This document shows positions 6,408-20,438 of a stretch of 64,000 nt of DNA, one piece after another. Source of the stretch: a virus (lineage: Duplodnaviria > Caudoviricetes). The stretch lies in the IMG/VR virus record IMGVR_UViG_3300033074_001631, positions 831-64,830 of that record; one strand, given 5' to 3'. The notes below the pieces were generated by a model. That model was not told where the DNA came from and did no database searches. It worked only from the letters and a program-made list of their open reading frames with translations. How positions within the stretch are numbered: the first letter of the stretch is position 1; every line of letters begins with the position of its first letter. The position numbers were made by a program, and so were the translations under genes.

Positions 6408-6440
6408 TAAATATACAAAAATTAGTTAAAAAATCAAACT
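6408..6440 (-). promoter_or_regulatory. Bacteroidota-type promoter for the amidinotransferase-psd genes
   Basis: Minus strand GTTTGATTTTTTAACTAATTTTTGTATATTTA (TTTG, then TATATTTA). The TTTG overlaps the integrase stop codon. Confidence 0.5.
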
Positions 6441-7228
6441 AAAAAAGGAATATTTTTAAAATTATTTGCTAATTTAGTATAAATTTGAGTAGATTTTATA
6501 TTATTATGACCTAATAATTTTTGAATTTTGTTTAAATCTACTTTTTGTTCATACAAATGGGTAGCGTAACAATGTCTTAACAAATGAGGATGAAAATCTT
6601 TTCCAAAATATTTCTTAATTATTTTTTGGATAGATCCTCCTGAATATTGAGGTTTGCTTTGACCTTCAAAAAGATAAATCTTAGGAGAACATGTGATATA
6701 ATATTCTCTCAACAGCTTTAAAAGAGGTTCACTTATAGGAACAAATCTATCTTTTGATCCTTTCCCTTGAACTATTTTTATAAGATTTTGTCCCTTTAAA
6801 ATATGTTCAATCTTTAAATTTATTACTTCACTTAATCTTAACCCACAACCATACATTAAATTACATATAGCTTTATGTTTTATATTAGGTATAGAACTTA
6901 AAATATCTTTAATTGTATTATGAGAAACCAATGTAGGAAGGTATTCTCTTTTTTTAGCCCTAACAAACTTATATTTAAATTCTTTTCTCCCTAAAACTTT
7001 TATATATAAAAATCTTAAAGCCGCTATAACTTGATTTTGTTTAGAACGAGAAGAATTTTCAAAGTTATTAAGATATAATTGTATATCTCCCATATTTATT
7101 TTATACGGATTTCTATCTCCTAAAAATTTAATTATTTCTTTTAGATAAATATCGGATGTTTTTAATGAATTGTAGGATTTTGTTAAAATTATTTCCACGT
7201 TTTTAACAAAATTATTATTTAGTCCCAT
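6434..7228 (-). CDS. Tyrosine recombinase, integron-integrase-like N-domain, lacks the IntI I2 insertion
   Basis: Catalytic set intact: GLRLSE, GKGSKDR, HLLRH, LGH, TQIYT. N-terminal SRSKQNQVIAALRFLYIKVL resembles the IntI N-terminal domain. Confidence 0.92.
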   Translation of the reverse strand: MGLNNNFVKNVEIILTKSYNSLKTSDIYLKEIIKFLGDRNPYKINMGDIQLYLNNFENSSRSKQNQVIAALRFLYIKVLGRKEFKYKFVRAKKREYLPTLVSHNTIKDILSSIPNIKHKAICNLMYGCGLRLSEVINLKIEHILKGQNLIKIVQGKGSKDRFVPISEPLLKLLREYYITCSPKIYLFEGQSKPQYSGGSIQKIIKKYFGKDFHPHLLRHCYATHLYEQKVDLNKIQKLLGHNNIKSTQIYTKLANNFKNIPFLV

Positions 7229-7264
7229 ATAACCGTTGATTTTATTGCAGAAGATTTTGGTGAC

Positions 7265-7283
7265 ATCTAACCCCCCGTTATAT
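7265..7283 (+). other. attI-like simple recombination site
   Basis: ATCTAAC-CCCCC-GTTATAT (7-5-7), 37 nt upstream of the integrase start; no long hairpin arms; first GTTA of the array at 7277. Confidence 0.6.
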
Positions 7284-7336
7284 GCAATGCTACATTTCTA
7301 CTTTGTATTAAATTTCGTGGTTATAATCTTTTTGTT

Positions 7337-7963
7337 TTATTTTTTTCCTACGCTCTTTAAAAATGTTGATAATTTAACATCACTTTCGATTAAATTTAGG
7401 TTTTTATCATAAATATCCCAAACCCATTCTTTTGTATTATTCGCATCAATTTTTACATTTACAACACAAGCCACATCAATATTTTTAGTAACATTAAATA
7501 CCACTTGAAATTGTTTATCTCCAGTATTATATACTTTACAAGCATCACTTGACTTAAAAACAATTCCCCAACCACCATATAAAAAATCTTTTTGGTATCT
7601 ACTATCAATTTTCTTGTTAGTTAAATCAAAAGCAAACCCAAAATTACCATCAACAATTTGTTCTTTACTTTTTCTTGTTTTTGTGAATGATGAATAATAT
7701 GCACCAACGCCACGAAATCCATTTTGTAAAATAGAAGTTATATTTTCTTTGGTAGTTGAATGGAATAATAATGTATTTGTTGGTAATTTTATTGCTGAAT
7801 TTGGTTTGTATGAAAAACCTCTTTGTGGTGTATTTTCTAAATTATTAACAACATTGATAAAATCATCAATTGTATTTATTGTTGTAATATCTTTTTTTGA
7901 AACACTCTCCTTTAACATTTTTTCTCTAAATGTATCAATATATTTCCTCATTTCTTGACTCAT
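7337..7963 (-). CDS. Cassette 1 ORF: putative ADP-ribosyltransferase-fold protein (start re-called to MSQEM)
   Basis: LFHSTTKENITSILQNGF H-x-T motif; N-terminal MSQEMRKYIDTFREKMLKE; AATATTTATA late-type motif just upstream of ATG 7963. Confidence 0.6.
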   Translation of the reverse strand: MSQEMRKYIDTFREKMLKESVSKKDITTINTIDDFINVVNNLENTPQRGFSYKPNSAIKLPTNTLLFHSTTKENITSILQNGFRGVGAYYSSFTKTRKSKEQIVDGNFGFAFDLTNKKIDSRYQKDFLYGGWGIVFKSSDACKVYNTGDKQFQVVFNVTKNIDVACVVNVKIDANNTKEWVWDIYDKNLNLIESDVKLSTFLKSVGKK

Positions 7964-8070
7964 AATTTTCTTTATATATAAATATTCAAATTTTAAATTT
8001 TCAACCCACAAAAAATAAAACAAAAAGGTTCATCTCTCGTATTAACTTTTCTACAACATATCCGCACTGC

Positions 8071-8163
8071 ATATAACAAGGTGTATAAGAAAGTTTGCTA
8101 TAAAGTTCAGTGGTAATTGAAAGTTCGTCTAAGCAAACCTTCTCATACACCAAATCGTTATGT
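8071..8163 (+). repeat. attC-like site 1 (93 bp)
   Basis: ATATAAC-AA-GGTGTATAAGAAAGTTTGCT ... AGCAAACCTTCTCATACACC-AAATC-GTTATGT; arms match 18/20. Confidence 0.85.
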
Positions 8164-8174
8164 ACAATACTACC

Positions 8175-8429
8175 TTAGTACCCATAATGACGTTTTTTGT
8201 AATCTTCAAACGCATCCCATATAGTATCTCCTATCCCATAACATTGTGGTGATACATTTTCTTCCATCCATTTATTCAATCTATAATGTGGTTCTTCCCC
8301 AAGTTGTATTTCGTGAATATTAGTATTATCACTTTCAGAATTGAAGATTACTATTTTACCACCGTATCTCATTGTTACTATTGTCAATGGATAAATATCT
8401 TCAATCTTTTCAATTTTGTCTTTTTTCAT
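8175..8429 (-). CDS. Cassette 2 ORF, hypothetical
   Basis: 84 aa, between GTTATGTACA (8157) and TGTACATAAC (8461). Confidence 0.7.
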   Translation of the reverse strand: MKKDKIEKIEDIYPLTIVTMRYGGKIVIFNSESDNTNIHEIQLGEEPHYRLNKWMEENVSPQCYGIGDTIWDAFEDYKKRHYGY

Positions 8430-8463
8430 CTTTTTAAATTTATTTGTTAATAATCCGTACTGT

Positions 8464-8557
8464 ACATAACAAGGTGTATAAAATATAACCTATTATAGTT
8501 CAGTTGTTATTTAAAAGTTTGTGGTTAGGTTACATTTCATACACCCAACCGTTATAA
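8464..8557 (+). repeat. attC-like site 2 (94 bp)
   Basis: ACATAAC-AA-GGTGTATAAAATATAACCT ... AGGTTACATTTCATACACC-CAACC-GTTATAA; arms match 17/19. Confidence 0.85.
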
Positions 8558-8571
8558 GTAATAAAAATATG

Positions 8572-8781
8572 TTACATATCATAGTCTTTCAAACTTTCCA
8601 AAAGATTTTCAATACCTTCTTTGATAAGTCCGTTATATAACCCAACTTTATTCAAGTTATATTTATTTTGTAGTAAATCTTTTTTCAGTTTTTCCAACCA
8701 CATATTTTTACTACTTATAACATCAGATATATTCAATTCTGATGTCTTTTCTTCAAATGTTTTCATGTTTTTAAGTTTCAT
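8572..8781 (-). CDS. Cassette 3 ORF, hypothetical; starts inside attC3
   Basis: 69 aa, MKLKNMKTFEEKTSELNISDVISS; the ISDVISS segment is encoded by the attC3 left arm. Confidence 0.65.
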   Translation of the reverse strand: MKLKNMKTFEEKTSELNISDVISSKNMWLEKLKKDLLQNKYNLNKVGLYNGLIKEGIENLLESLKDYDM

Positions 8782-8846
8782 ATTGTTAAATTAATTTTAT
8801 ACTATATATTAAAAATCAGAACTAAATATATCTGTAACCGTTATCG
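8715..8846 (+). repeat. attC-like site 3 (132 bp)
   Basis: CTTATAAC-AT-CAGATATAT ... ATATATCTG-TAACC-GTTATCG. Confidence 0.75.
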
Positions 8847-8847
8847 G

Positions 8848-9180
8848 TCATGCTAAGAGACGTGCTAACCAATCGACAGTTTTTTGAATTTTACGACCTA
8901 AAAAAGTTTTCGCAAAAGTGTTTTTAAAATCTTTTTTCGCTAAATCTAAATCGTGACTGAGAAACTCGCTTGTGTTTGACAGTTTCCAAATATCTTCATT
9001 ACTAAGTTCTGTCCATTCTCGCATATCAGGTGTTTTATAATGATTTTCGTAAAACAGTTTTAGTTTTTGAAATTTATCAAAACTTATAGTTTTGGGTTTT
9101 TCAAGCCTTTCAATGCGTTTGAATAGGTGAAAGACAACTAAGCAGTTAATGATTAGTGAAATTGAAATTAAGTGTTCCAT
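8848..9180 (-). CDS. Cassette 4 ORF, N-terminally anchored protein
   Basis: 110 aa with a hydrophobic N-terminus; TGA stop overlaps the GTTATCGGTCA cassette start. Confidence 0.7.
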   Translation of the reverse strand: MEHLISISLIINCLVVFHLFKRIERLEKPKTISFDKFQKLKLFYENHYKTPDMREWTELSNEDIWKLSNTSEFLSHDLDLAKKDFKNTFAKTFLGRKIQKTVDWLARLLA

Positions 9181-9218
9181 TTGATTAAATTTTATTTGTT
9201 TGACAATGAAGCACGAAC

Positions 9219-9350
9219 CGATAACAGCACCTACCCAAAAGCGGGGGTGATGTGGTTAAATCGGGTTTTGTGCTTCTATTTAAGTTCATTGTTTATTGAC
9301 AGTTTTCGTTTTCAAAATCCCCGCCTTCGGGTAGCTGCAAACCGTTATAC
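9219..9350 (+). repeat. attC-like site 4 (132 bp)
   Basis: CGATAAC-A-GCACCTACCCAAAAGCGGGG ... CCCCGCCTTCGGGTAGCTGC-AAACC-GTTATAC; arms match 17/20. Confidence 0.85.
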
Positions 9351-9536
9351 ACAATATTTTTTCACTTTTTCACTTCTCTCAATGAAGAAATCTACTCTCT
9401 TTTCTAATTCATCAGAAGTTGCCATCGGTTTAAACTTAATACCGTGGGTATCTACCCAAGTTTTAACATCACAAGCACCATAAGCTTCTTCTTTTAGAAG
9501 TTCTATCAAAATTTCTTTAAGTTTATTTGTTTCCAT
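9345..9536 (-). CDS. Cassette 5 ORF b, hypothetical
   Basis: 63 aa; its TAA stop is the TTA of the cassette-start GTTA (9344). Confidence 0.65.
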   Translation of the reverse strand: METNKLKEILIELLKEEAYGACDVKTWVDTHGIKFKPMATSDELEKRVDFFIERSEKVKKYCV

Positions 9537-9789
9537 TTTTTCTTTGTTTAAGTTTGTTTTCTAATTCCTGAACAGCATTTTTCTTTTCTTCCAATTCTCT
9601 TTCGGATTTCTCAACTTCTTTTTTCAGCTCTTGATGATACTTTTCCATTTTTTTCCATTTAAGAACTGGATTTATTTCTGAATAAATATCATCAAATAAA
9701 TCCTTAATAGTTTTACCAAAAAGTATTTTACTCCAACTTACTTCTTCATTTAGAAAACTTTCCCATTTCTTAATCTTTATATCTTTCAT
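9523..9789 (-). CDS. Cassette 5 ORF a, coiled-coil protein with a head-protein-like leader
   Basis: 88 aa, MKDIKIKKWESFLNEE; C-terminal coiled coil. Confidence 0.65.
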   Translation of the reverse strand: MKDIKIKKWESFLNEEVSWSKILFGKTIKDLFDDIYSEINPVLKWKKMEKYHQELKKEVEKSERELEEKKNAVQELENKLKQRKNGNK

Positions 9790-9844
9790 ATTTAATTGAT
9801 TTATTTTTATTATATATTCTTAAATCAAAGTGAAAAAATACTTT

Positions 9845-9898
9845 GTATAACAAATGATAAACAACATTAAAACGATTGTTTATCATCGGACGTTAGCG
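9845..9898 (+). repeat. attC-like site 5 (54 bp, shortest)
   Basis: GTATAAC-AA-ATGATAAACAA-CATTAAAACGA-TTGTTTATCAT-CGGAC-GTTAGCG; perfect 11-bp arms. Confidence 0.85.
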
Positions 9899-10168
9899 GC
9901 AATCTTGAATGACGTTCACGCTACTAATTTCATCCCATTTTCCGAGAACTCTAACATACATTACTTTTCCGCAGGTGTCTATTACTACATATCTATACTC
10001 TTTGTCTGGTAAGGCGTAAACTTTTGCCTTTGGATACGCTTTTTCAACTGTTTCCATACACCTGCTATTATCAAGTGATTTATTTACGTCACTACAAGAA
10101 GTAAAGACTGCCGCTAACATCGCATATACGGCAATAGCGGCTACTGTGCTAATTTTAAAGTTTTTCAT
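9893..10168 (-). CDS. Cassette 6 ORF, putative lipoprotein
   Basis: Signal peptide ending FTSC. The signal peptide is encoded within attC6, and the stop is the TTA of GTTA 9892. Confidence 0.7.
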   Translation of the reverse strand: MKNFKISTVAAIAVYAMLAAVFTSCSDVNKSLDNSRCMETVEKAYPKAKVYALPDKEYRYVVIDTCGKVMYVRVLGKWDEISSVNVIQDCR

Positions 10169-10245
10169 TTCTATTTTACTTTTGTGGTTAATTCAACTTT
10201 TGTGCCTTGAAGCCCGCACGAACGGCAAGCCACAAAACGTTAGCG
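10112..10245 (+). repeat. attC-like site 6 (134 bp, poorly matched arms)
   Basis: CGCTAAC-AT... ...CAAAAC-GTTAGCG. The ends are intact but the inner arms barely pair. Confidence 0.6.
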
Positions 10246-10467
10246 AGCATAACAGATACAACTACCTTCACTATATCCTTTACATCGTTCACAGTAAGTC
10301 CAACTATCTTTAAACTCTTCCCAATCAACCCAATCATATTCATCTTGCCAAGCAAATAACTTCTCCAAATAATATTCAGAGTTACGCTCGCTAACATCAA
10401 GTAAACGCAAGTTTTCTTCCGTTATCTTTGATGTTAGTTTTTCAATTTTACTTTTGAATATATTCAT
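10240..10467 (-). CDS. Cassette 7 ORF, small protein with a C-terminal Cys cluster
   Basis: 75 aa, ends CERCKGYSEGSCICYAR; starts inside attC7; stop lies in GTTA 10239. Confidence 0.65.
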   Translation of the reverse strand: MNIFKSKIEKLTSKITEENLRLLDVSERNSEYYLEKLFAWQDEYDWVDWEEFKDSWTYCERCKGYSEGSCICYAR

Positions 10468-10521
10468 AATGTTGTTCCTTAAATTAAGTGAAAACCTGCG
10501 TTTACTTGCGGTACGTTAGGT
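10389..10521 (+). repeat. attC-like site 7 (133 bp)
   Basis: CGCTAAC-AT-CAAGTAAACGCA ... TGCGTTTACTTG-CGGTAC-GTTAGGT; perfect 12-bp arms. Confidence 0.85.
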
Positions 10522-10527
10522 GCAATG

Positions 10528-10785
10528 CTATTCGACACCATCACGATAAAATTTCTTATTCAAATTATGACAAGCAATCATTACATCTTCATAAGCACCT
10601 TTATATCGTGTCTTATTTTCGTTGTGAGTATCTATCACTTCCCATTTGTTATTTACACAAATCTTTTGAAATCTTCTTTCGGTGCTTATACTTGGCATTT
10701 TTACTTGTTCTTTAATTATTTCAATCATCTTTTCAAGTTTTGTGAGAAGCACTGCACCTAACAGCAAGTAAGCAATAGTTGCCAA
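10528..10785 (-). CDS. Cassette 8 ORF, hypothetical; starts inside attC8
   Basis: 85 aa; MATIAYLLLGAVL is encoded by the attC8 left arm. Confidence 0.55.
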   Translation of the reverse strand: MATIAYLLLGAVLLTKLEKMIEIIKEQVKMPSISTERRFQKICVNNKWEVIDTHNENKTRYKGAYEDVMIACHNLNKKFYRDGVE

Positions 10786-10849
10786 TAACTTCTCGGTTAA
10801 TAATTAAGTTCATCGTAGGCAACCATCGCCTACTTGCGAATCGTTAGCA
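10756..10849 (+). repeat. attC-like site 8 (94 bp)
   Basis: ACCTAAC-A-GCAAGTAAGCAATAGTTGCC ... GGCAACCATCGCCTACTTGC-GAATC-GTTAGCA; arms match 17/20. Confidence 0.85.
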
Positions 10850-10864
10850 CCAATAGCTACCTTA

Positions 10865-11152
10865 CTACTTCTTCTTTGGCTTAACATTTTTTACTTCACC
10901 AGTTGTTGTGTTTTTTAACTGAATATTTTTCAATTCATTTTTGCCATCATCAATCCAAATAAATTTAACTTTAGCAATATCAGAGTTCATTTTACCCTTA
11001 TATTCTTCACGCTCTTTTATTTTGGCAAAAGTTTGATTTACTTGATTAAGCCAAAGAAGAAAATCAATTGACAATCTTTCAAAATTTTCAGGCGTAGTTA
11101 CATTAACCAATTGCTCTAATGTTTCAATTTCGTATTTTTTTACTTTACTCAT
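10865..11152 (-). CDS. Cassette 9 ORF, hypothetical
   Basis: 95 aa, between GTTAGCACCA (10843) and TGTTGCTAAC (11185). Confidence 0.7.
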   Translation of the reverse strand: MSKVKKYEIETLEQLVNVTTPENFERLSIDFLLWLNQVNQTFAKIKEREEYKGKMNSDIAKVKFIWIDDGKNELKNIQLKNTTTGEVKNVKPKKK

Positions 11153-11187
11153 TCTATTTATGTTTTTATGTTAATAATCCGTACTGT

Positions 11188-11281
11188 TGCTAACAAGGTA
11201 TATATGCAATACCCTACTAAGGTTTATACTAAATTTTAAAGTTTCGGCTTCGGGTACTGCATATATGCCCAGCCGTTAGTT
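11188..11281 (+). repeat. attC-like site 9 (94 bp, last in the array)
   Basis: TGCTAAC-AA-GGTATATATGCAATACCC ... GGGTACTGCATATATGCC-CAGCC-GTTAGTT; arms match 16/18. Confidence 0.85.
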
Positions 11282-11282
11282 G

Positions 11283-11456
11283 CTATCTGTTTTTGTTCTT
11301 TTTTGTCCCACGCACTTTGGTTTTTTCAAAACCATTAGATTTTGATTCTCGTTCCAAAATATCCTGTGCCAAGTTTTTAAAATCTGTGTTCTCATCAATG
11401 GCTCTTTTGCTCAATGATTTTACACATTCATCTGATAGGTCAAGTAGTTTTTTCAT
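11283..11456 (-). CDS. 57-aa ribbon-helix-helix-like DNA-binding protein (not in ORF track)
   Basis: Hand translation MKKLLDLSDECVKSLSKRAIDENTDFKNLAQDILERE...; beta-helix-helix pattern; ATGA-type overlap with 11453..11758. Confidence 0.5.
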   Translation of the reverse strand: MKKLLDLSDECVKSLSKRAIDENTDFKNLAQDILERESKSNGFEKTKVRGTKKNKNR

Positions 11457-11758
11457 TTTATTATTATTTTTTGCGCTTTAAAACCTTCTCTTTTAATATA
11501 AAAAGGCGGTGATACTATGTATGCTTTTTTCAAATTTTCTTCCCCTATTTTTATTGCTTCTCCAATAGTTAAATCTTTAACCCATTCCCCGCTTGGTAAA
11601 ATATGAGCAATATAATGGGATGATGCTTTTTCATTCAATCTGCCCTCTTTTTCTAATAAAGAAAAAATAAATGAGTTTTGTTTATCAGATAACCAAGCCT
11701 GTTTGCCATTCGCAAGGGCTTTATCATAAATTGATTTTGCTAATTCTATTGAGTTCAT
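11453..11758 (-). CDS. Hypothetical protein
   Basis: 101-aa ORF with a promoter-like GTATATTTA near 11780. Confidence 0.6.
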   Translation of the reverse strand: MNSIELAKSIYDKALANGKQAWLSDKQNSFIFSLLEKEGRLNEKASSHYIAHILPSGEWVKDLTIGEAIKIGEENLKKAYIVSPPFYIKREGFKAQKIIIK

Positions 11759-11809
11759 ATTGTTCTAATTTTCTATAAATATACACCATATATACGCTAT
11801 TTCCCATAG

Positions 11810-12388
11810 TTAAATTTTGTTTATTTCAAACCCCATCCAAACGGAACGATATAACCCATGAATATTCTCATATGTGTCTCCATATAATTTCCCGTTTATT
11901 ACTGCAACAGCATGTCCTTGAAGTAGTAACACAAATCGACCAATTGGATTATTTTCCATAAATGATTTCAAAGTATAACCTGTGGGGTTTTTGTATTTTT
12001 TGTTTATAAGTGTTTTGTTTAAACCGATTTTAACACTGAAATGTTCTTTTGAAGGGTGGTAACCTAAATAATTTATTTTATAACCATTCTCAATTGTATT
12101 AATAATATTTTTGCAATAAAAATATAATAAAGTACCTCTTCTATTTACACGATTCAGTTTTGTTTTGACCCAAATATGAGATTGTTCATATGAGAGATCC
12201 AAGGCTATCATAAAAGACCTTACAACGCAATCATTAGATTCATGTCTAGCTAACCAACTTTGTTTACATACTAGATCTATAGTATCAACATATAAACCAG
12301 GTCTTAAAATTTCAACCTCTTTACCACGCCAAAGTATTTTTTCAGTAATTTGCATAACTTTTTTTAAATTATTCCGGCAAAAGACCAT
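11810..12388 (-). CDS. Hypothetical, possible papain-like Cys/His enzyme (likely start 12355)
   Basis: NDCVVRS and GHAVAV motifs. Confidence 0.45.
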   Translation of the reverse strand: MVFCRNNLKKVMQITEKILWRGKEVEILRPGLYVDTIDLVCKQSWLARHESNDCVVRSFMIALDLSYEQSHIWVKTKLNRVNRRGTLLYFYCKNIINTIENGYKINYLGYHPSKEHFSVKIGLNKTLINKKYKNPTGYTLKSFMENNPIGRFVLLLQGHAVAVINGKLYGDTYENIHGLYRSVWMGFEINKI

Positions 12389-12596
12389 TATTTTCTAAAG
12401 CCATCCATAAACGCTCTTTCCAAGTCTCATTTTTAACTCCTTCGATAAGATCTTTATCATTAGAACCGTTAAGGGTAGCTTGACCTACTAAAACAAGAGC
12501 TTTTTCAATACATTCTTGAAAGTTTTCAATTTTGCCTTCTTTCAAAAATATTTTTGATGATTCCCAGAGTTGAGTGATTGGACCGTTGATTTTCAT
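12369..12596 (-). CDS. Hypothetical protein
   Basis: 75 aa, directly downstream of a promoter-like element. Confidence 0.6.
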   Translation of the reverse strand: MKINGPITQLWESSKIFLKEGKIENFQECIEKALVLVGQATLNGSNDKDLIEGVKNETWKERLWMALENNGLLPE

Positions 12597-12618
12597 AACT
12601 TTTTGTTTTTTTGTAGAT

Positions 12619-12650
12619 TAAATATACGAAAAAATTTTCGAAAATCCAAA
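12619..12650 (-). promoter_or_regulatory. Bacteroidota-type promoter
   Basis: Minus strand TTTGGATTTTCGAAAATTTTTTCGTATATTTA. Similar elements occur near 28876-28907, 30412-30442, 43249-43279 and 61508-61537. Confidence 0.6.
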
Positions 12651-12667
12651 TTTTTCGCATGAAAAAG

Positions 12668-14149
12668 TTATGAAAAATTTTTCACAAATTTAGTGGTTCC
12701 ACAATCCCATATTTTAGTATAACCCAATTCTTCCATGATTTCAAATTCGGTTTTATTAACATCACAACCCATTTTTTTTAATATTTTTTTATTAAAATTA
12801 AATCTATGATATCTTTTTAAATAATCTTTAGTATAAAAATAATTAGGAGAAGATTCTTTTTCTTTTTTAAATCCAATTTTTAAATACATATTATTATTAG
12901 GATCTGTCCATCTGTTATCTGAATATGAATATATTTTAGTAGGATTAAAATTTTTTATAAAAAAATTTAATAACTTTGAAGCTCCTCCTATTACATTATA
13001 TTTAGTAGCATATCTTGATAATTCATATATTTTTTTATCATTTTTATTTCCCCCCAAAGCAATTCTAGGATGAGAAAAAGTCATCACAGCCACTAATTCT
13101 TCTTTTAAAAATAAACCCAATTTTATTGAACTTCTATCAGATCCTTGTATATGGTAATTATCTAAAAATTGGTTTTTTTCTTTAAACAATATTTCTTTTA
13201 TAGAACATTTTCTAGCATATATTTTTGTTTCTGTAATATTTAATACAGAACGTAATTTATTTTTAACTATGTTTTTTTTATTTAACCATTCATCTGAAAA
13301 TATTTGTATTAATCTAATGTTATTATCGATAGCTTGTTTATATTTATTAAAATGATAATCTTTAAATCTATTAGCTTTTTCTGAATGCCAATATAGTCCA
13401 TTATATTCTATTCCTATATTTAGTTCGGGTAAATATATATCTATTTCATTTTTAGGAAAAAGTCTAACATTTGTTTTAATTTCTCCTTTATATATATTTT
13501 TTATAAATTCTAATAATTCTAATTCTTCCTTAGATTGTTTACCTATGTTAGAAAATACTTCCCAATCCCAGTGCCCTTTTATATAATCTCTATGATATGT
13601 TTCTTTACCTAAATCACAATTTTTACCATTTTCTAGTATAGAAACAGGTTCTCCACAACCACATTTACATGCAGGTATTTTGTTATCTAATACATATTTT
13701 ATTATATATTCAGATTTAGATATATTAGAATGTTTTTTTGTTATATGGTACATTAAATGTTGATTACTTTTAACCTTTTCACCACATATATTACATTTGA
13801 ATAAAGATTGTTCTTTTAATTTATTTTCTTTAATATTTTTAGGTCTAAATTCTCCATATTTAATAATATATTCTTCAGTTTTAATATTATGGGCCCACTT
13901 CAAATGCATTGCCATAGATCTTACTGATTCAGAAGAATTACATATTTTACATAAAACTTCATTTCTTTTGTCTCTGGTTGATTTTAATGAAAAATTTTCA
14001 TGTTCAAATCTCCAAACATACCCCCCAGCAGTTTTATATTTTCCTTCACAACACCTTAAAATAGAATCTCTATTAGAAATTTTTACATCTTTTATATCAT
14101 TATATAACTTTACTAAATGTCCTTCTAAAGAATATTGTTTTATTTTCAT
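12668..14149 (-). CDS. Composite homing endonuclease-like protein (NUMOD1, zinc fingers, Vsr/Hef-like nuclease, GNAT-like C-terminus)
   Basis: CCEGKYKTAGGYVWRF (NUMOD1); CxxC...HxxxxH fingers; EIDIYLPELNIGIEYNGLYWH; YELSRY...GGASKL...YSDNRW. Confidence 0.7.
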   Translation of the reverse strand: MKIKQYSLEGHLVKLYNDIKDVKISNRDSILRCCEGKYKTAGGYVWRFEHENFSLKSTRDKRNEVLCKICNSSESVRSMAMHLKWAHNIKTEEYIIKYGEFRPKNIKENKLKEQSLFKCNICGEKVKSNQHLMYHITKKHSNISKSEYIIKYVLDNKIPACKCGCGEPVSILENGKNCDLGKETYHRDYIKGHWDWEVFSNIGKQSKEELELLEFIKNIYKGEIKTNVRLFPKNEIDIYLPELNIGIEYNGLYWHSEKANRFKDYHFNKYKQAIDNNIRLIQIFSDEWLNKKNIVKNKLRSVLNITETKIYARKCSIKEILFKEKNQFLDNYHIQGSDRSSIKLGLFLKEELVAVMTFSHPRIALGGNKNDKKIYELSRYATKYNVIGGASKLLNFFIKNFNPTKIYSYSDNRWTDPNNNMYLKIGFKKEKESSPNYFYTKDYLKRYHRFNFNKKILKKMGCDVNKTEFEIMEELGYTKIWDCGTTKFVKNFS

Positions 14150-14183
14150 AATATTTTTTTAACGTATCGTGGATAATATATAA

Positions 14184-14211
14184 AAAGAGGGTTGAAAAAT
14201 CAACCCTCTTT
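14184..14211 (-). terminator. Terminator downstream of the major capsid gene
   Basis: AAAGAGGGTTGA-AAAA-TCAACCCTCTTT, perfect 12-bp stem. Confidence 0.75.
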
Positions 14212-14233
14212 AGTTAGTTACTAATTTTTATTA

Positions 14234-15835
14234 TTATATGGTATTTAAACCACTAACATAAATTTTAGCATAAAATTCTGGTCTTAACATTTTCTTTGCA
14301 TATCTTGTTAATAGACCTTTTCTTGGTGTAAAGGTATCAGGATCGTACACTAACGGAGTCATCACTAACGGAATATAAGGAGCAAATACAGCACCGGCTT
14401 CCAAAAACTGACTACCTCTAAATCCTAATAGAATAGTATTCTCAGTCATATAAGGGTTTTTATAGATGTTATATCTACTATTTAAAGAACCTACTTTTTG
14501 TACACCAAAAGCATATTGCATTTGAGCAGCATCTCCATTTGAATTAGCAGCAAACCCAGGAATTGATTCAAAGATAGTTGCTACTGTAGGAGAACATACT
14601 AAGAAATTAGCTCCACCTCTTAAAGTTAATTGGTGAATTTTATTACTCAATTTTTGTACTTTAGTACCAAGAGTTTGGAACCATCCTCCTTGAGTATTGT
14701 AATATCCTGAAGATAATGTTTCAAATGCAGTCCCACCACTGTTAATAACAGTATTGTTTACAGCTGACCAATATTCAGTTCCAGCAGCTGCATCTTGAAT
14801 TAACATATCTAATATTTCAAGGTCAATCTCCATAGAAATATATTCAGACATTATGTTTGTTAATTCTGCTTCTGCATCGATGTTTTGGTATGCACTTAAG
14901 TCTTGTGCATATTCAGGAGTCCAAACAGCCTTTAATTTACGTGTTTTAGCCACAATTGCTTGTGATTGCATTTTCACATTAATCTCAGGTATTGAAATAG
15001 GATTATTATCTGCATTTAATTGAGTGTTACCATCTTCGAAGTCACCTCTTTTATTATCAGCAGTAGCTAATGAATGAGATACTAAAATAGTAGGAGCAGC
15101 AGCTATTACTGTTGAACCAGTAACTACGAAAGTTACAGCAGATCCATTAGTTGAAGTAAATGCAGGCAAATAATCTAATTGAGCACTTCCTGAATAAGGA
15201 ACAAAGCTTCTAACAGCTTCAAAATCAGTTGATGAAGGTAATGTAACTGTTAAAGTTTTATATTGACCAAAAGAAGATGAATAATTTGAGTCAAAATTAA
15301 ATGTTGCCCAAGTAGTTGACCCTGAAGCAGCTGCTGCTGTTGAAGAAGTAGTATTTATTGTATAACTAAATCTTCCAGCTCCATACAAACCACCTGCGGC
15401 TGAAGGAGTAGCAAAAGGATAATTACTTCCTGTATTTCCATATAATGAAGAACCTGCACTAAAAGGGGCTTTATTAGTTCCATATTGGAAATCTAAATAA
15501 AATACTAGTCCTGAAGGTAAGTTCATTGGTTGAACAGAAACAAATTCCTTAGCTACAATTTGACCAAATACTTTACGTACTAAAGGAAGAGCAATACCTG
15601 CCCAGTTTTCACCTGTTCCTACTGTAAAAGTGTTATTTACTGTAGAAGTAGTGGAATTTTCTGTTACCAATTGTTTAGCTTGGTTTTCCAACATGATAGC
15701 CATGTTATTTGAATCAGTTTCACCTAATCCCTCTAAAAGTCCTGTTTTAGCCCATTTTGCTGCTAATCTTTTAGCATCACTTTGAACTGACTTCCAAGGA
15801 TTAGAAGATTCTAATAATGATTGAATAGTGTCCAT
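14234..15835 (-). CDS. Major capsid protein (T4 gp23-like)
   Basis: VQPMNLPSGLVFY, VAKTRKLKAVWTPEYAQDL, FAPYIPL and TRYA motifs. Confidence 0.95.
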   Translation of the reverse strand: MDTIQSLLESSNPWKSVQSDAKRLAAKWAKTGLLEGLGETDSNNMAIMLENQAKQLVTENSTTSTVNNTFTVGTGENWAGIALPLVRKVFGQIVAKEFVSVQPMNLPSGLVFYLDFQYGTNKAPFSAGSSLYGNTGSNYPFATPSAAGGLYGAGRFSYTINTTSSTAAAASGSTTWATFNFDSNYSSSFGQYKTLTVTLPSSTDFEAVRSFVPYSGSAQLDYLPAFTSTNGSAVTFVVTGSTVIAAAPTILVSHSLATADNKRGDFEDGNTQLNADNNPISIPEINVKMQSQAIVAKTRKLKAVWTPEYAQDLSAYQNIDAEAELTNIMSEYISMEIDLEILDMLIQDAAAGTEYWSAVNNTVINSGGTAFETLSSGYYNTQGGWFQTLGTKVQKLSNKIHQLTLRGGANFLVCSPTVATIFESIPGFAANSNGDAAQMQYAFGVQKVGSLNSRYNIYKNPYMTENTILLGFRGSQFLEAGAVFAPYIPLVMTPLVYDPDTFTPRKGLLTRYAKKMLRPEFYAKIYVSGLNTI

Positions 15836-15866
15836 TTTTTGTTATTAGTTTTTTTAATGTTTTTTA

Positions 15867-16808
15867 TTATTTTGTTAAACCAGCAAGTTTTTTCATTCTT
15901 TCAAAAACCAAATTAGATTCTATAATAGGACTTTTACTTGACTGAGATATAGTTTTAGAAGCTGAACCTAGATGTTCTTTAATATGTAATTTTTTAGATT
16001 TTTTATCAATATTACTTACTAAAGTTTCATATATTAATTTGGCTTCTTTAGTAGTTGAAGCTTTATCAAAGGCTTCAACAATTTTTGTTTTTTCGGAATC
16101 GTTTAATGATTTTGCTTTGAATATTTTGTTGATGTAAATAAGTTTTGAATTTAAAAGATTAACTTCATTGATTGATTGTCTTAAAACTTTTATAGTTTTA
16201 TAAGCTTCTTCTAATTCTTGAGGTTCTTCTTTTTTAAATTCTTTTAAAGAGGCACAAGCAGGATGTTCAGGATGGTCAGCACAATATAATTTTTTAAATT
16301 CTTCTTCATCATGTTCAGAATATTCATTTATTTCTTGTTCTTCTTCCATTTCTTCGGCTTCTTCCATAGTAGTTTCTTCTTGTTCTTCAGAAATTTCAGT
16401 TTCTTCGGTTTCAGATGAAGGAACTCCTTCTATTTCACCAGCATCTACCATACTTTGGATAACATCTGTTACAAAATTTTTCAAATCTTCTTCAGACATA
16501 TCTTCAATATCAAACTCTTCTTCAGTTTCAACTTCTTCTTCTTCTTCTTCCTCTGTTACAGTTTCTTCTGTTACATTTTCTTCTTCAGAATCAAGTTCAG
16601 CCAAAAGTTCATCTAAATTAATTTCTTCTTCTTCCTCTGTTATAGTTTCTTCTTCAGAATCCATTTCAGAAATTTTTGAAGCTAATTTTTCTTTAAGAAA
16701 AGGTGTAAATGCTTCTTCTAAAGCCATCTTTGCTTGTTCTAATGCTACTTCTTTTACTTTTTTAGCATCAGCAATTGCTTCTTTAAGCAATTCTCTGTTT
16801 GTTTCCAT
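15867..16808 (-). CDS. Prohead scaffold / core protein (gp22-like)
   Basis: Highly acidic and coiled-coil; lies between the protease and MCP genes; ends ERMKKLAGLTK. Confidence 0.75.
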   Translation of the reverse strand: METNRELLKEAIADAKKVKEVALEQAKMALEEAFTPFLKEKLASKISEMDSEEETITEEEEEINLDELLAELDSEEENVTEETVTEEEEEEEVETEEEFDIEDMSEEDLKNFVTDVIQSMVDAGEIEGVPSSETEETEISEEQEETTMEEAEEMEEEQEINEYSEHDEEEFKKLYCADHPEHPACASLKEFKKEEPQELEEAYKTIKVLRQSINEVNLLNSKLIYINKIFKAKSLNDSEKTKIVEAFDKASTTKEAKLIYETLVSNIDKKSKKLHIKEHLGSASKTISQSSKSPIIESNLVFERMKKLAGLTK

Positions 16809-16957
16809 GTTTTTGTTCTCAAATTTTTTTGGGAAAATATGCCTATTTAAAAAAGCATAATAAAAATAAACTAATTAGGTGTTATATAATTAATAACACA
16901 TTCAATTATAAATACCGCAAAATTTTTTAAAAAATGCTCATGTATAAAAAAATTTTT

Positions 16958-17608
16958 TTAAATATCTATTAAACAACTTCCATTAGAACACAAGATTTCA
17001 GTAATAATTTTATTTATTCTATCATTTTTGTTTATCTTAGTTAAATCTAAACCTTCATTTATTTGGGTTGATTTCATCCAAGAACCAGGATTTGAAGGAT
17101 TTGATACAGCATCCCATGTTAATAAATCAAAATCATCTTGTACTTCCATTATCTCTCCTTTTTGTTCTAATGAACCCAACCCACGAGAGGAAATACCAAA
17201 TAATAATTTATTTTTAACATAAGCTCCTAAAATTCTTCCAGAAATAGTTCCATATTCTCCAGGATCAGAAAATATTTCTAATATCCCTTTTATTAAATCC
17301 CCTTCCCACCAAATTTTTCTTATAGCATGAGAACCATTCTTTAAGTTTATTATTGTTGAAGATGGATGATCTAATTCACCTATAGTTTCAGTAGTACCAG
17401 CATCTATTTTCTTTTGAAACTTAGATAATTCTCTTTCCCACAATTCTCTAGAGTAATATCGACCATTTCCATTTTTAACTTCTACAGTAGCCAAAACCCC
17501 CTCAACAAATAAATTTTTATTTGAAGAAATATTGTTTAATCCTTCTATTAATTTTACAGGAGCAGAAGTATATTGAAAAGGGTGGGTTTCTACTAATAAT
17601 TCTTTCAT
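16958..17608 (-). CDS. Prohead protease (T4 gp21-like)
   Basis: NGNGRYY, GELDHP, GISSRGLGS and WDAVSNPS motifs. Confidence 0.93.
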   Translation of the reverse strand: MKELLVETHPFQYTSAPVKLIEGLNNISSNKNLFVEGVLATVEVKNGNGRYYSRELWERELSKFQKKIDAGTTETIGELDHPSSTIINLKNGSHAIRKIWWEGDLIKGILEIFSDPGEYGTISGRILGAYVKNKLLFGISSRGLGSLEQKGEIMEVQDDFDLLTWDAVSNPSNPGSWMKSTQINEGLDLTKINKNDRINKIITEILCSNGSCLIDI

Positions 17609-19971
17609 ATAAAATCTTCTAAGTTTTTATTTGATTTTATTTCTTTAACTATATTAGATAAAGATAAAGATTTATTTTCTCTAACAGGAACACAATTAGG
17701 AACCTGTTTTCCGTTTTTAGATTTTATCCCTATTTGTTTATATCCTTTCCAGCAGGCTTCATCTTCGGAAATAGTAGATTTTACTATTTTTAGATTTTTT
17801 TTATTAGCATATTTTTTAGCTTGTTCTGGTGTATCAAAAAACATATCTATTTGTTTTGAACCATCTGGTTTTTCCAAAACATAAACAGGATTTTTTTTAG
17901 GTCCTGATTTAGATATCATGTATGTGTTTTCTTTATTCCAAGCTGTTGAACCTATTTCAGGTTTATATGATGGGTTGGATTCATTGAATTGACTCTCAAA
18001 TCTAACTGTAATTCCCCTTTGATTAAATTCTGATTCTAATTCTGATTCTAAAGAATCTAATGTTTCTTCATCTTCAGGAAAAAACCAATATCCCTCACGG
18101 GGATTCCATACCCCATAATAATCAGTTTCACCCAACATGTCTTTTATGGCATTATTATCTATTGGGGTTCTGCCTTTTACTATTAACCCCGAACCATCAT
18201 AATCCCCCATCATACCTGAAGATTCATCTAGTGCGGAATAAACAGTATTATCACTATCATACCAATCTTCTACTACATATTTATCATCTCTGATTTTATT
18301 AACATGTACAGCATATTGTCCTTCTCCATATTTATCTGCATATTTTTTTGCATCTTCTAAATTGTCAAAATATGCTGGGGTTGTTGGTTCTTTTTGGGTT
18401 TCTTTTAATTTATTGTTCTTAAAATAAACTAAAGCTAATTGTTTTTTAGTGTCGGGATGTAATCTTAAATATTCTTCATATGATATGCCTGAATGCTTTG
18501 CTATTGGTTTTCCTTCAACATGTTTCAAATAATCTAAATCTAGATTTTCATGCTCATTTACTATTTGATTTCCTTGGATTCTTCTTAAAACTATTCCATA
18601 AACATCCCCGTTTCCAAAATCAACATTGACCATATCATCCATTACTTTTACAACTTTTCCCTTTTTTCCATTCTTTATAAGAGTGTCACCTATTTTTGGT
18701 TTATATTTATCTTTTTGTTCTTCTAAAGATTCATTAGTTTTAGCCTTTTTTAAATCTTGAGCTTTAACCCAAACTTCTGGTCTTCCACCAAATTTAATTG
18801 ATTTGATATAAATTCTTCCATCATCAGCAATACGTGTTACTTTATGTTTGATTCCTTTATATAAGACAACATCATCAGATTCAAATTCATTTTCAGAAGG
18901 TTTAACCATAGAACCTATTGAGCGGGCTTCTAATTCATTTATGGGTTTAGTAGAAAAATTGCCCCACTCTCCTCTTATTGTTCTTATTTCATTATCGTTT
19001 TTATCATATACTGTAACTATGTAAATAGCATTCATGTTATAGTTACGAGCAGGAGTATAGTCTTCTATTATTCCATAGTATCCTTGAGATGATGGGTATA
19101 TTTCACCTACATCTCCTCTAAAATAAACTTTGTCACCAATATCACTACCTGATCCTTCTTTTATTGGATTTTTTCTATCTTGTAAAATTTTCTCAATAGA
19201 AGAAGGATTAACACCTTTTTCTTTCAAAAATAATTCTAATTCTTCATCCGGTAAAGTATCTATCTGAAATTTGTATTTTCTTTTTGCTGAGTTGTAAGAG
19301 TATTCAACAGCATTATATCCCCCATCTTCAGGGGTTTTTATATTAGTTTGTGGATTATCAGTAATTCTTCCAAACATAGGGTGAGTATAAATATTTTCTT
19401 TTAAAATATCAGGAGCTTTTTCATATCCACTAGCTTTATATTTACCTTTTACTTCTTTAGTAGGAGTGGATTCTTTATACCCCAACCCTTTAACACCAAA
19501 CTGACCTTCTTTGGTATAATACATTATATCTTTAGCTAAATTTTTAGCTACAATCTGTTTTAATTCTTCTACTGTTTTTTCAGAATTTTTGGGGTCTTTC
19601 ATTTCAGCATAATAACCGGTAAGAAACTGAGGTCCATAGATGTTATCAATATTTTTAACATCTTTATAATCATAACCACGAGTAGTCATGTCCGTTGCTT
19701 CTTTAGTGGTTTCTTTTTCTTCAGCTTTAGCTGCTTCCGAAATATTTTCTTTAAAAATAGAAAACCAATCAGGTTGTTTTTTTGAACCAGTTACTAACCC
19801 CCCAATAAATCTTTCAGATATTATGGATTTATTTTTTAAAATTGTAACAGCGTTTTCAAAGGTAGTATATTGATTTATATATTGAGGAAAAATTCTTTTT
19901 ATTGATTTCATAAAAAAATCTTTATTTCCTTTTCCTTCTAAAATTAAATCATATTGTGTTTGTAAATCCAT
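17605..19971 (-). CDS. Modular head-associated polyprotein
   Basis: 788 aa of unrelated 50-90-aa modules separated by (L/I/V/F)xE; adjacent to the prohead protease gene. Confidence 0.6.
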   Translation of the reverse strand: MDLQTQYDLILEGKGNKDFFMKSIKRIFPQYINQYTTFENAVTILKNKSIISERFIGGLVTGSKKQPDWFSIFKENISEAAKAEEKETTKEATDMTTRGYDYKDVKNIDNIYGPQFLTGYYAEMKDPKNSEKTVEELKQIVAKNLAKDIMYYTKEGQFGVKGLGYKESTPTKEVKGKYKASGYEKAPDILKENIYTHPMFGRITDNPQTNIKTPEDGGYNAVEYSYNSAKRKYKFQIDTLPDEELELFLKEKGVNPSSIEKILQDRKNPIKEGSGSDIGDKVYFRGDVGEIYPSSQGYYGIIEDYTPARNYNMNAIYIVTVYDKNDNEIRTIRGEWGNFSTKPINELEARSIGSMVKPSENEFESDDVVLYKGIKHKVTRIADDGRIYIKSIKFGGRPEVWVKAQDLKKAKTNESLEEQKDKYKPKIGDTLIKNGKKGKVVKVMDDMVNVDFGNGDVYGIVLRRIQGNQIVNEHENLDLDYLKHVEGKPIAKHSGISYEEYLRLHPDTKKQLALVYFKNNKLKETQKEPTTPAYFDNLEDAKKYADKYGEGQYAVHVNKIRDDKYVVEDWYDSDNTVYSALDESSGMMGDYDGSGLIVKGRTPIDNNAIKDMLGETDYYGVWNPREGYWFFPEDEETLDSLESELESEFNQRGITVRFESQFNESNPSYKPEIGSTAWNKENTYMISKSGPKKNPVYVLEKPDGSKQIDMFFDTPEQAKKYANKKNLKIVKSTISEDEACWKGYKQIGIKSKNGKQVPNCVPVRENKSLSLSNIVKEIKSNKNLEDFI

Positions 19972-19976
19972 TTTTA

Positions 19977-20438
19977 TTAATTATCTTTAAATAATGTTAT
20001 TAAATCGTCTATATAAGATTCAGCTATATCAGTACTATATAAAACATCAAAATCTGGTTTTTGTTTGTATTTTTCTATAACTTTATATTTAGCTGATTTT
20101 AATAAAGGTAATAGTTGATTTATTTTGTTTTCTATTGAATCAAAAGTTAATATTCTTTTAAAAATAAATTTTTTTAATTTAGGATCTTTTATTTTTAAAG
20201 AATTGACATATGTTTCAATGTCAAATTTTTCTTCATTCAATTTTGGTTTCCACAAATCTTTATGATCTATTCCTTTAGCTTGTTTATGTAATTTATTAAC
20301 ATCTGCTGGTTTATAGCCTAATTTATAATAATATATATTTTTAGTCCCTTTAGCATTTTTATCAGGATTAAAAGCATAAGGAGTAAGATACCCAAATTCT
20401 TTTAATTTAGTTTTTACTATTGAATTTAATAAGTCCAT
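19977..20438 (-). CDS. Hypothetical head-module protein
   Basis: 153-aa ORF within the portal-protease operon. Confidence 0.6.
   Translation of the reverse strand: MDLLNSIVKTKLKEFGYLTPYAFNPDKNAKGTKNIYYYKLGYKPADVNKLHKQAKGIDHKDLWKPKLNEEKFDIETYVNSLKIKDPKLKKFIFKRILTFDSIENKINQLLPLLKSAKYKVIEKYKQKPDFDVLYSTDIAESYIDDLITLFKDN

Follow-up and report, generated by a model that had tools for sequence, protein, structure and literature searches.

The window, a stretch of 64,000 nt of phage DNA, carries at positions 7277-11281 an array in which nine hairpin sites with cores of TAAC/GTTA, together with an attI-like junction, delimit nine cassettes with ten ORFs. All ten cassette ORFs (span 7337-11152) are on the minus strand and read toward a tyrosine recombinase gene of the Xer type (264 aa; 6434..7228, minus strand; Pfam Phage_integrase, 3.2e-35), in the same direction as the phage's own genes. 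This confirms the sequence-only reading of the locus, which had described the cassette ORFs as inverted relative to the polarity of the sites, opposite to the arrangement in canonical integrons. Phage genes, and no host DNA, are found on both flanks of the array. The GC content of the array (30-34%) exceeds that of the backbone (~25%), which suggests a foreign origin of the array.

The core coordinates of the sites on the plus strand are 8074-8160 (A1), 8467-8554 (A2; 88 nt, covariance model score 93.9 bits), 8718-8843 (A3; 126 nt), 9222-9347 (A4), 9848-9895 (A5; short, 48 nt), 10115-10242 (A6; a hybrid with the 5' arm unpaired with the 3' arm), 10392-10518 (A7), 10759-10846 (A8) and 11191-11278 (A9; the integrase-distal array end). 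All cassettes are read on the minus strand. Cassette C1 (7278..8157) comprises an ORF (7337-7963), a conserved promoter-like 5' module (~7964-8060) that lies outside the hairpin, between it and the ORF, and site A1; C2 (8158..8551) comprises ORF 8175-8429 and site A2; C3 (8552..8840) has ORF 8572-8781, which starts in the loop of A3, and terminal inverted repeats of 22 nt (8551-8572 and 8700-8721). C4 (8841..9344) consists of ORF 8848-9180 and site A4, and C5 (9345..9892) of two ORFs (9345-9536 and 9523-9789) and site A5, with terminal inverted repeats of 25 nt (9344-9368 and 9827-9851). The lipoprotein-like ORF of C6 (9893..10239; ORF 9893-10168) starts in the loop of A6, and that of C7 (10240..10515; ORF 10240-10467; inverted repeat I18) inside A7. 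C8 (10516..10843) has ORF 10528-10785 (TTG start) or 10528-10728 (ATG start) with site A8, and C9 (10844..11275) has ORF 10865-11152 with site A9. The cassette proteins have no match in PHROG and only weak, sub-threshold matches in Pfam, of which a PARP/ADP-ribosyltransferase match of the C1 ORF is the sole one of possible interest; exact-protein look-ups for C6 and C7 returned the source contigs only, or nothing.

Domain matches within the 264 aa of the recombinase are to a SAM-like core-binding domain and a catalytic domain only. An alignment to VchIntIA (2a3v) shows the full catalytic set of R, K, HxxR, H and Y but not the IntI-specific insert, which IntI employs on hairpin substrates; the alignment skips chain residues ~210-263, with a jump from 209 to 264. 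The IntI model TIGR02249 matches below threshold and in two stretches (151.8 bits vs. a cut-off of 265), there is no equivalog-level match to XerA_Arch of NCBIfam (168.9 vs. 220), and the scores for XerD (144.7 vs. 329.6) and XerC (140.8 vs. 335) are also below their cut-offs. The attI-like junction (7229..7280, minus strand; GTTA at 7277-7280), where the last cassette ends in ...GCATTGCATATAAC| and non-hairpin DNA follows, is 48 nt from the recombinase start. Its layout is the same in loci L002, L004, L018, L057 and L068, with both the position and the motif of attI conserved. In 11 further loci, too, the recombinase gene follows the array immediately and shares its strand, and the array-attI-recombinase layout is conserved in 13 loci at 44-71% protein identity, with differing cassettes.

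Read on the minus strand, a site consists of 5'-TAAC-G, a bulge of 3-4 nt, a stem of ~20 bp, a variable loop, the returning stem and T-GTTA-3'. Covariation supports 17 of the 20 stem pairs in the site alignment, where 96% of the cells are paired, and the AAC/GTT (TAAC/GTTA) core is invariant in the site family. A G.T pair is found in the R box in 20/20 sites and at another stem position in 19/20, so that the minus strand has two to three conserved G.T pairs, and the plus strand has none. With the base adjoining the core invariant and the G.T pair on one strand only in all 20 sites, the earlier claim that TAACA on the left and CGTTA on the right mark polarity is borne out. The AAC/GTT triplets themselves are palindromic, and the polarity signal sits in the base next to the core. 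The minus strand is ahead in folding stability in eight of the nine sites and scores ~90 bits with the covariance model, vs. ~29 for the plus strand. This model, trained on the present site family, detects seven of the nine sites on the minus strand; its only other matches in the 64-kb window are weak and correspond to two of these sites seen on the reverse strand. A cruder fold scan yielded only an unrelated palindrome at 12596-12670. An Rfam search gave no family at E<=1.

The bottom strands of attC sites are marked by G:T enrichment and higher stability (PMC5027507), and both are properties of the minus strand here. The sites have a hairpin, R''/L''-L'/R' boxes and a conserved AAC/GTT core, as attC-type sites do, and are confined to the array. 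Extrahelical bases opposite the AAC triplet, another attC criterion (PMC5027507), are absent, as the stems are continuous, and the sole unpaired stem feature, the bulge of 3-4 nt, is on the AAC arm; one canonical criterion of polarity is therefore inapplicable or points the opposite way. With neither the IntI-specific insert in its recombinase nor extrahelical bases in its sites, the system is integron-like and not an integron. IntegronFinder calls a CALIN where at least two attC sites lie farther than 4 kb from any IntI, and the array would probably fall in this class, since its recombinase is not an IntI. The G.T bias might also reflect selection on mRNA structure, because the putative folding strand is at the same time the coding strand.

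The site family comprises 286 sites in 67 viral loci, and one site subtype by itself occurs in 71 viral stretches. Neighbouring ORFs are on the folding strand in 243 cases and on the other strand in 9, and the reversed orientation is the rule across the family in these 67 loci. Each cassette opens with 14-25 nt that are reverse-complementary to the 14-25 nt at its own end. Arrays begin with a hairpin in 23/33 cases and with an ORF unit before the first detected hairpin in 10/33, and they end with a hairpin-less ORF unit closing in ...TAAC in 22/29. Of 180 ORFs compared with their cores, 30 use the TAA of the core as stop, 103 stop at most 30 nt before it and 2 run past it, in agreement with ORFs that finish at the core or close before it. 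Homologous cassettes, compared in three independent pairs, have retained the hairpin upstream better than the one downstream. C6 and its relative in L093 (91% identical) have loop, 3' arm and ORF in common and diverge exactly at TAAC. Close relatives vary in cassette content, with breaks at the cores; breaks in contigs of other runs fall at 9343, 10513/4 and 11277, C8 has alternative neighbours (breaks at 10513/10514 and 10763), and the cassette pool is common to many phages. Two joints in contigs of the source run, 7280>9341 and 9362>9835, were left out of the evidence because their sides measure only 22 nt.

Among cultured isolates, phage Freya_10 differs from Freya_1 by an extra block of 4.9 kb with 12 co-oriented genes, inserted exactly after ..AAC|, ~65 nt ahead of the integrase gene, at the position that corresponds to the attI junction; the block ends in ..TAAC|, and a hairpin is missing from its 3' side. 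Searches of Freya and Leef, both cultured Polaribacter phages, with the covariance model detected no member of the present site family, and a crude scan gave one short candidate site in Leef; the sites of these phages are of another type. Several tests thus agree that the coding (minus) strand would be the folding and cleaved 'bottom' strand, namely the invariant G.T wobbles, the array ends, the confinement of ORFs by TAA|C, the co-travel of hairpins with their downstream ORFs and the insertion in the cultured phage. From this strand assignment the predicted cassette follows as a hairpin and then an ORF, in the opposite order to the cassettes of canonical integrons.

Coding sequence and site overlap at both ends. 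The ORFs of C5, C6 and C7 end at 9345, 9893 and 10240, and their stops are the TTA of the GTTA cores at 9344-47, 9892-95 and 10239-42, as the sequence-only reading had stated. It had also placed the starts of C3, C6, C7 and C8 inside the sites. This is correct for C3 (ATG 8781), C6 (ATG 10168) and C7 (ATG 10467) and only conditional for C8, whose start is inside the site with TTG 10785 but outside it with the first ATG (10728). The N-terminal peptides that it quoted are all encoded by the 3' arm or the core: the 3' arm of A3 encodes ..ELNISDVISS of the C3 protein, and that of A6 the C6 signal peptide. The notion of the site as translation start and coding sequence extends to the whole family, where 42 of 80 long hairpins contain the start codon together with N-terminal codons.

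A sigma-70 scan gave 45 matches where 38 +/- 6.6 were expected, which is no enrichment, and the Bacteroidota -7 box (TAnnTTTG) does not occur on the coding strand of the array. The inference of the sequence-only reading that the att site doubles as promoter, with a promoter inside the hairpin, finds no support in these scans. The only conserved promoter-like module, that of the C1 type, is placed between hairpin and ORF. In the backbone upstream of the array a promoter-like TATATTTA box (11776..11783, minus strand) is a candidate source of read-through, and the same box is found 10-25 nt ahead of other backbone genes (12626, 6415, 3191, 25906, 35648 and 54190). No terminators are predicted and no T-tracts follow the stems, which, together with the box at 11783, allows plain read-through. 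The array is most likely transcribed by read-through from a backbone promoter, with cassette-borne promoters contributing in some cassettes, e.g. C1. Expression of the integrase by read-through is also possible, and there is a weak promoter-like match between attI and the integrase start. As a tentative proposal, rather doubtful at present, the site may serve as an expression adaptor. Roughly every second long site would supply a start codon along with a common N-terminal leader (type ..LNISDV.., with the GTT of the core read as Val), and perhaps a promoter as well. A captured coding segment would in that case be expressed on its own wherever it is inserted, and folding in DNA or mRNA would couple recombination and translation.

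We regard it as probable that the phage carries an integron-like platform for gene cassettes, operated by a short tyrosine recombinase of the Xer type, with the minus strand folding. The hairpin would form from the single-stranded minus strand and the recombinase, by analogy with integrons, would cut at TAA^C on the 5' arm. The sequence comparisons show the structure of the sites and their strand, the extent of the cassettes, the rule of orientation, the overlaps of ORFs with sites and the common cassette pool, whereas both the cleavage chemistry and the strand used are inferred. A cassette would then be ordered as hairpin, 14-25 nt able to pair with its own end, ORF, and end at TAA. Long hairpins (~126 nt) have the start codon in the loop and the first codons in the 3' arm. 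New cassettes are expected to enter the present phage at the attI-like junction upstream of the recombinase gene. That all ORFs face attI and the recombinase follows from the identity of folding strand and coding strand.

The same array could be read in the canonical orientation, as ORFs each followed by its own attC, with the coding strand crossing over at TG|TTA, the recombinase at the far end and the G.T bias a matter of mRNA folding, not of the DNA substrate. The related chromosomal array of Catalinimonas does have the ORF before the attC, in some arrays an ORF unit precedes the first hairpin, and C8-like units occur with a different upstream hairpin. Nevertheless, ORFs hardly ever enter the downstream hairpin, whereas start codons are common in the long ones; the unit adjoining the recombinase at the array end lacks a hairpin, as does the end of the Freya insertion block; and the downstream hairpin is not conserved among homologous cassettes. 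Since the canonical order would also need cleavage of the poorly folding strand, we consider it unlikely. It is quite unlikely, too, that the locus is a decaying relic, in which a captured array stands beside an ordinary lysogeny or Xer-type enzyme inactive on its sites. The hybrid A6, the minimal A5 and the missing IntI insert would fit such a relic, and the integrases of cultured relatives have been interpreted as lysogeny genes (PMC8776804). Against it are the intact catalytic residues, the retention of one layout at the protein identities given above while cassettes differ, phage genes on both flanks in place of host DNA, the cassette differences among close relatives with breaks at cores, and the Freya isolates that differ by a block inserted at the junction.

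It is very improbable that the hairpins act at the level of the transcript, as terminators, stabilisers or translational switches spread by duplication, instead of serving as recombination sites. Their stems are G.U-compatible on the coding strand and their loops may hold start codons, but the absence of T-tracts, predicted terminators and a matching Rfam family is at odds with this view, as are the invariant AAC/GTT cores, the homology breaks exactly at these cores and the linkage of the sites to a tyrosine recombinase. The terminal repeats of the cassettes, moreover, are sensible only for excised circles. The cassette platform with a folding minus strand remains our preferred reading.

Integrons are the textbook bacterial gene-capture system, in which an IntI-specific domain reads the extrahelical bases and thereby fixes the orientation of cassettes toward one promoter. 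The phage array resembles them in having a tyrosine recombinase beside a junction site, with its gene directed away from the junction, a one-way array of small cassettes, imperfect hairpin sites with AAC/GTT cores and variable loops, one strand that is more stable and richer in G:T pairs, and cassette starts complementary to their own sites. In contrast to integrons, it has neither the IntI insert nor extrahelical bases, its cassette ends are complementary over 14-25 nt or more vs. 7 nt, and start codons are within long sites. Its ORFs are on the folding (bottom) strand and directed toward attI and the recombinase, whereas integron ORFs are on the top strand and read from Pc in the direction leading away from intI, and no Pc-type promoter position is able to serve the phage cassettes.

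The chromosomal array of Catalinimonas alkaloidigena (L087), a member of the Bacteroidota, is of the 'inverted integrase' layout and has a short insert-less recombinase of similar length and 49% identity to that of the phage, cassette ends on the same GTTATGTGC.../...GCACATAAC logic, and recombinase and ORFs that are co-directed. There, however, the recombinase is upstream of the array, while in the phage the array is upstream of the recombinase and the polarity is flipped: in L087 polarity is canonical, the ORFs occupy the top strand, the coding strand reads TAACA..CGTT and the antisense strand is the more stable one. The folding of a hairpin from one DNA strand as substrate for a Xer-type enzyme is known from CTX phage attP and XerCD, which, unlike the present phage, perform a single integration into dif and have no cassette arrays and no attI. 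Clusters of attC sites without integrase (CALINs) in phages were described by Qi et al. 2023 (PMC9892861) and tested with the bacterial IntI1; like the present array they have attC-type sites interspersed with small genes of the phage, and their carriers include phages of marine Bacteroidota. That work does not describe a phage recombinase of the Xer type, an attI junction, a rule of reversed cassettes or coding hairpins, and on orientation it notes only 'divergent directions' in one Polaribacter phage. In the literature no paper describing the present family was found.

A large phage family thus appears to run a gene-capture platform without the IntI domain, with genes oppositely oriented and partly written into the recombination sites. 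If confirmed, this would mean that cassette recombination at hairpin sites is older or more flexible than the IntI model permits, and that an important channel through which phages exchange genes escapes standard surveys, which are based on IntI and the attC model. It would also be a natural case of a recombination site that supplies translation signals, and the 'integrase' genes of Bacteroidota phages, now taken as evidence of lysogeny, would need rereading.

A recombinase homologue in Marinimicrobia (L089) was set aside as an array recombinase; it is probably a true Xer, because it lies amid housekeeping genes and has no array. The linkage between hairpin and ORF is imperfect in places: C8-like units in two wastewater runs bear another hairpin, the 5' arm of A6 is unlike that of its relative in L093, which has retained a proper one, and a C5-like unit in L092 carries a degenerate site.

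The IMG/VR record behind the window is 64.8 kb long, with an estimated completeness of 40% and a GC content of about 26%, and nearly all genes in the first 44 kb of the window lie on the minus strand; a search of the cultured-phage collection found no near relative. The cassette array (7277-11281; 30-34% GC, higher than the backbone) begins with an attI-like GTTA core at 7277-7280, 48 bases from the start codon of a minus-strand tyrosine recombinase of 264 aa (6434-7228) that combines a SAM-like core-binding domain with a catalytic one. Nine further sites (A1-A9, belonging to cassettes C1-C9, numbered outward from the recombinase) follow up to 11278, each running from TAAC to GTTA on the plus strand. 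Their lengths fall into three classes (about 88, about 126 and 48 nt), and all ten ORFs between them are on the minus strand. A same-strand recombinase also lies directly downstream of the array in three close relatives (71% identity) and at 11 more loci (44-50% identity), with a shared junction motif (TAAC|.AGAyTTATATAT). In one of the close relatives (locus L013, G001 11000-24000) about nine further cassettes (sites at G001 13572-17283) form a second array, about 10 kb downstream of the recombinase gene and with no recombinase of its own alongside; the upstream flank of this array is homologous to window 11281-11330.

An alignment of twenty diverse sites from the window and other viral contigs showed 96% pairing and compensatory changes at 17 of 20 stem pairs, and neither shuffled alignments nor slid registers came near these values. 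A G.T pair in the R box (TAAC-G with T-GTTA) is present in all twenty sites, a second G.T pair at one stem position in 19, and a third is frequent; on the opposite strand the conserved positions become C.A mismatches. The TAACA and CGTTA ends, taken as a polarity marker in the sequence-only reading, are thus borne out as the sequence face of the invariant R-box pair. The minus strand is the stabler one in eight of the nine window sites, by 0.6-6.7 kcal/mol, and with a covariance model built for the site family the scores are about 90 bits (minus strand) vs. about 29 bits (plus strand). The model recovers seven of the nine window sites, missing A5 because it is too short and A6 because it is a hybrid, and its search of the 64 kb found no site beyond those of the array. 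The 88-nt sites have an unpaired loop motif, GAACTTTCAAATTACCAC (e.g. 8103-8125, minus strand), that is conserved in more than 40 viral contigs. In canonical integrons the bottom strand of attC is the stabler strand and is enriched in G:T, and the integrase cuts AAC on its 5' arm (Nivina et al. 2016, PMC5027507). Given the same stability and G:T enrichment, the minus strand is, by the criteria of that study, the predicted bottom strand of the window sites.

If the minus strand is taken as the bottom strand, then recombinase, sites and the attI junction beside the recombinase are arranged relative to each other as in canonical integrons. The cassette ORFs are not: they occupy the bottom strand and are read in the direction of the recombinase. 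This inversion relative to site polarity, noticed earlier in the window, is confirmed there (10 of 10 ORFs on the folding strand) and extends to a family-wide rule: at 67 viral loci the ORF adjoining a site is on the folding strand in 243 cases vs. 9, with one site polarity in every locus. The chromosome of Catalinimonas alkaloidigena (698391-719233) encodes a related recombinase (280 aa, 49% identical) that also lacks the insert specific to IntI. At least 11 cassettes form an array downstream of this recombinase; the array adjoins a prophage-like block, and its end is marked by a group II intron reverse transcriptase encoded on the other strand. The coding strand of the sites reads TAACA..CGTT there, i.e. 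the canonical polarity, and the antisense strand is stabler in 8 of 11 sites. The reversal is therefore a property of the phage family and not general to insert-less recombinases.

By analogy, the window array appears to work like an integron, from which it differs in the reversed orientation of its cassettes and in two defining features. The IntI-specific insert (chain residues about 210-263 of the Vibrio integron integrase, 2a3v) is missing from the phage recombinase in an alignment to the 2a3v structure, in which the catalytic motifs are retained, and extrahelical bases are absent from the sites, whose sole unpaired feature besides the loop is a bulge of 3-4 nt on the AAC arm. The top NCBIfam models for the recombinase, archaeal XerA / 'integron integrase' and IntI, both score below cut-off. 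Clusters of attC sites in phages have been assayed with IntI1 (Qi et al. 2023, PMC9892861), and flavobacterial phage integrases of this sort have been taken as lysogeny markers (PMC8776804). In full-text literature searches, no account of a phage platform of Xer type with reversed cassettes turned up.

Each hairpin could form one cassette with the ORF that follows it in the reading direction (crossover at TAA^C) or, as in canonical integrons, with the ORF that precedes it. The two models were compared on 286 sites in the 67 loci, which came from one pattern scan (71 stretches matched), the recombinase relatives and the window. On the plus strand, a stretch of 14-25 nt just after each GTTA recurs in reverse complement immediately before the next TAAC (e.g. 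8551-8572 pairing to 95% with 8700-8721, and 9344-9368 to 92% with 9827-9851). These terminal inverted repeats frame each ORF and are able to pair only in the excised circle, which places the crossover inside the 4-nt core. Eight lines of evidence fit the pairing of a hairpin with its downstream ORF, one of them being the position of the recombinase. Arrays end with a complete ORF unit and TAAC, without a hairpin, in 22 of 29 resolvable cases, and start with a hairpin that has no upstream partner in 23 of 33. Among 180 non-redundant ORFs, 30 use the core TAA as stop, 103 stop within 30 nt before the core and only 2 pass it, although the next hairpin stays open in two frames. Of 80 long hairpins, 42 contain the first ATG of the ORF, vs. 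2 of 75 in the 88-nt class; nine of the 42 have no later in-frame ATG, and for most of the others a start at the next one would cut away much of the ORF. Homologous ORFs with unrelated neighbours were compared in three independent pairs, and the upstream hairpin was the better conserved one each time (upstream vs. downstream: 0.92 vs. 0.49, 0.91 vs. 0.68 and 0.57 vs. 0.39). C6 and its counterpart at locus L093 (91% identical) have loop, 3' arm and ORF in common and diverge exactly at the TAAC core. Contigs with homology to C5 and C8, taken from other sequencing runs, break at 9343 and at 10513/10514, and different DNA follows an A9-type hairpin from 11277 on. Finally, two cultured isolates, the Polaribacter phages Freya_10 and Freya_1, differ by a 4.9-kb block of 12 co-oriented genes present in Freya_10, whose insertion point is exactly behind ..ACAAC|, about 65 nt ahead of the integrase gene. 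The block ends in ..GCTAAC|, its last stop codon lies 11 nt earlier, and there is no hairpin at the 3' end. In the cultured phages Freya_10 and Leef_1 (loci L014 and L015), a repeated element of another kind, GCTAACACGTGTARCAAAGGG with a short hairpin, stands upstream of the integrase; Leef_1 also has a single short TAACG...TGTTA hairpin (L015 2392-2444).

The linkage of hairpin and downstream ORF has exceptions. Two wastewater runs contain C8-like units with another hairpin after the TAACA core, locus L092 has a C5-like unit with a degenerate site, and an ORF unit precedes the first detected hairpin in 10 of 33 arrays. The 5' arm of A6 (10115-10242) forms a small hairpin of its own and is unpaired with the 3' arm, while the 5' arm in L093 matches; A6 resembles two sites fused together, perhaps via the conserved loop motif. 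Such cases could be explained by occasional exchange at the other core or by homologous recombination between conserved loops. A contig of the source run apparently joins the attI flank to the C5 terminal inverted repeats (7280/9341, 9362/9835), with both C5 ORFs absent and matching sides of just 22 nt.

The sequence-only reading had also proposed that ORFs are built into the sites, and both this and its orientation reading are supported, the overlap by the family-wide start and stop counts. Cassettes C5, C6 and C7 each end in an ORF whose stop codon is the core TAA. Starts inside the sites hold for C3, C6 and C7 (ATG in the loop), and for C8 only if a TTG start is used. The 3' arm of C6 codes for the hydrophobic core of a lipoprotein-type signal peptide (..AAIAVYAMLAAVFTSC), retained in L093 with conservative changes. 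Across the family, 29 of the 42 starts inside hairpins have the core GTT in frame as a Val codon, and in none does it stand in a TAG-capable frame; this reading as Val accounts for the recurrence of ..LNISDV.. type leaders, which had been spotted in the window.

Regarding expression, the searches did not bear out a promoter inside the hairpins, as proposed in the sequence-only reading: sigma-70-like matches numbered 45 vs. 38 +/- 6.6 expected from shuffles, the Bacteroidota -7 motif was absent from the coding strand of the array, and a terminator search of the array found none. A TATATTTA box, probably a phage or host promoter -7/-10 element, lies 10-25 nt before backbone start codons on the minus strand (3191, 6415, 11783, 12626, 25906, 35648 and 54190), the copy at 11783 being upstream of the array and that at 6415 after the recombinase. 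Another is in the 5' arm of A3, 49 nt before the C3 start, and the stretch from attI to the recombinase start contains a weak promoter-like match (ATGTCA-16-TAAAAT). A near-perfect 75-nt palindrome between two backbone genes (TCATAACTTTTT...AAAAAGTTATGA; 12596-12670), outside the cassette-site family, includes a TATATTTA promoter-like box. The simplest model from these sequence features would be read-through across the entire array and recombinase. In the large cassette class to which C1 belongs, a conserved module (..TTTGAATATTTATATATAAAG.., 10-30 nt, ATG) stands between hairpin and ORF, and this module recurs in wastewater contigs at high depth. Some cassettes therefore probably carry their own promoter, located outside the hairpin. 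C1-type cassettes share hairpin, 5' module, a 21-nt internal inverted repeat (window 7325-7345 and 8010-8030; comparison locus L004 2594-2613 and 3344-3365) and 3' tail. The enclosed ORF is not the same in the window and in G001, and seems to have been swapped within the conserved frame.

The assembly of the probable source run is broken at six of the sites, and read depth in that run is 28.6 left of attI, 42-89 inside the array and 70.7 right of it. Wastewater runs of other studies contain C5-C8 and their hairpins at 100-4600x, with the recombinase and the C1 and C2 ORFs near zero, so that the cassette pool is much wider than the window phage.
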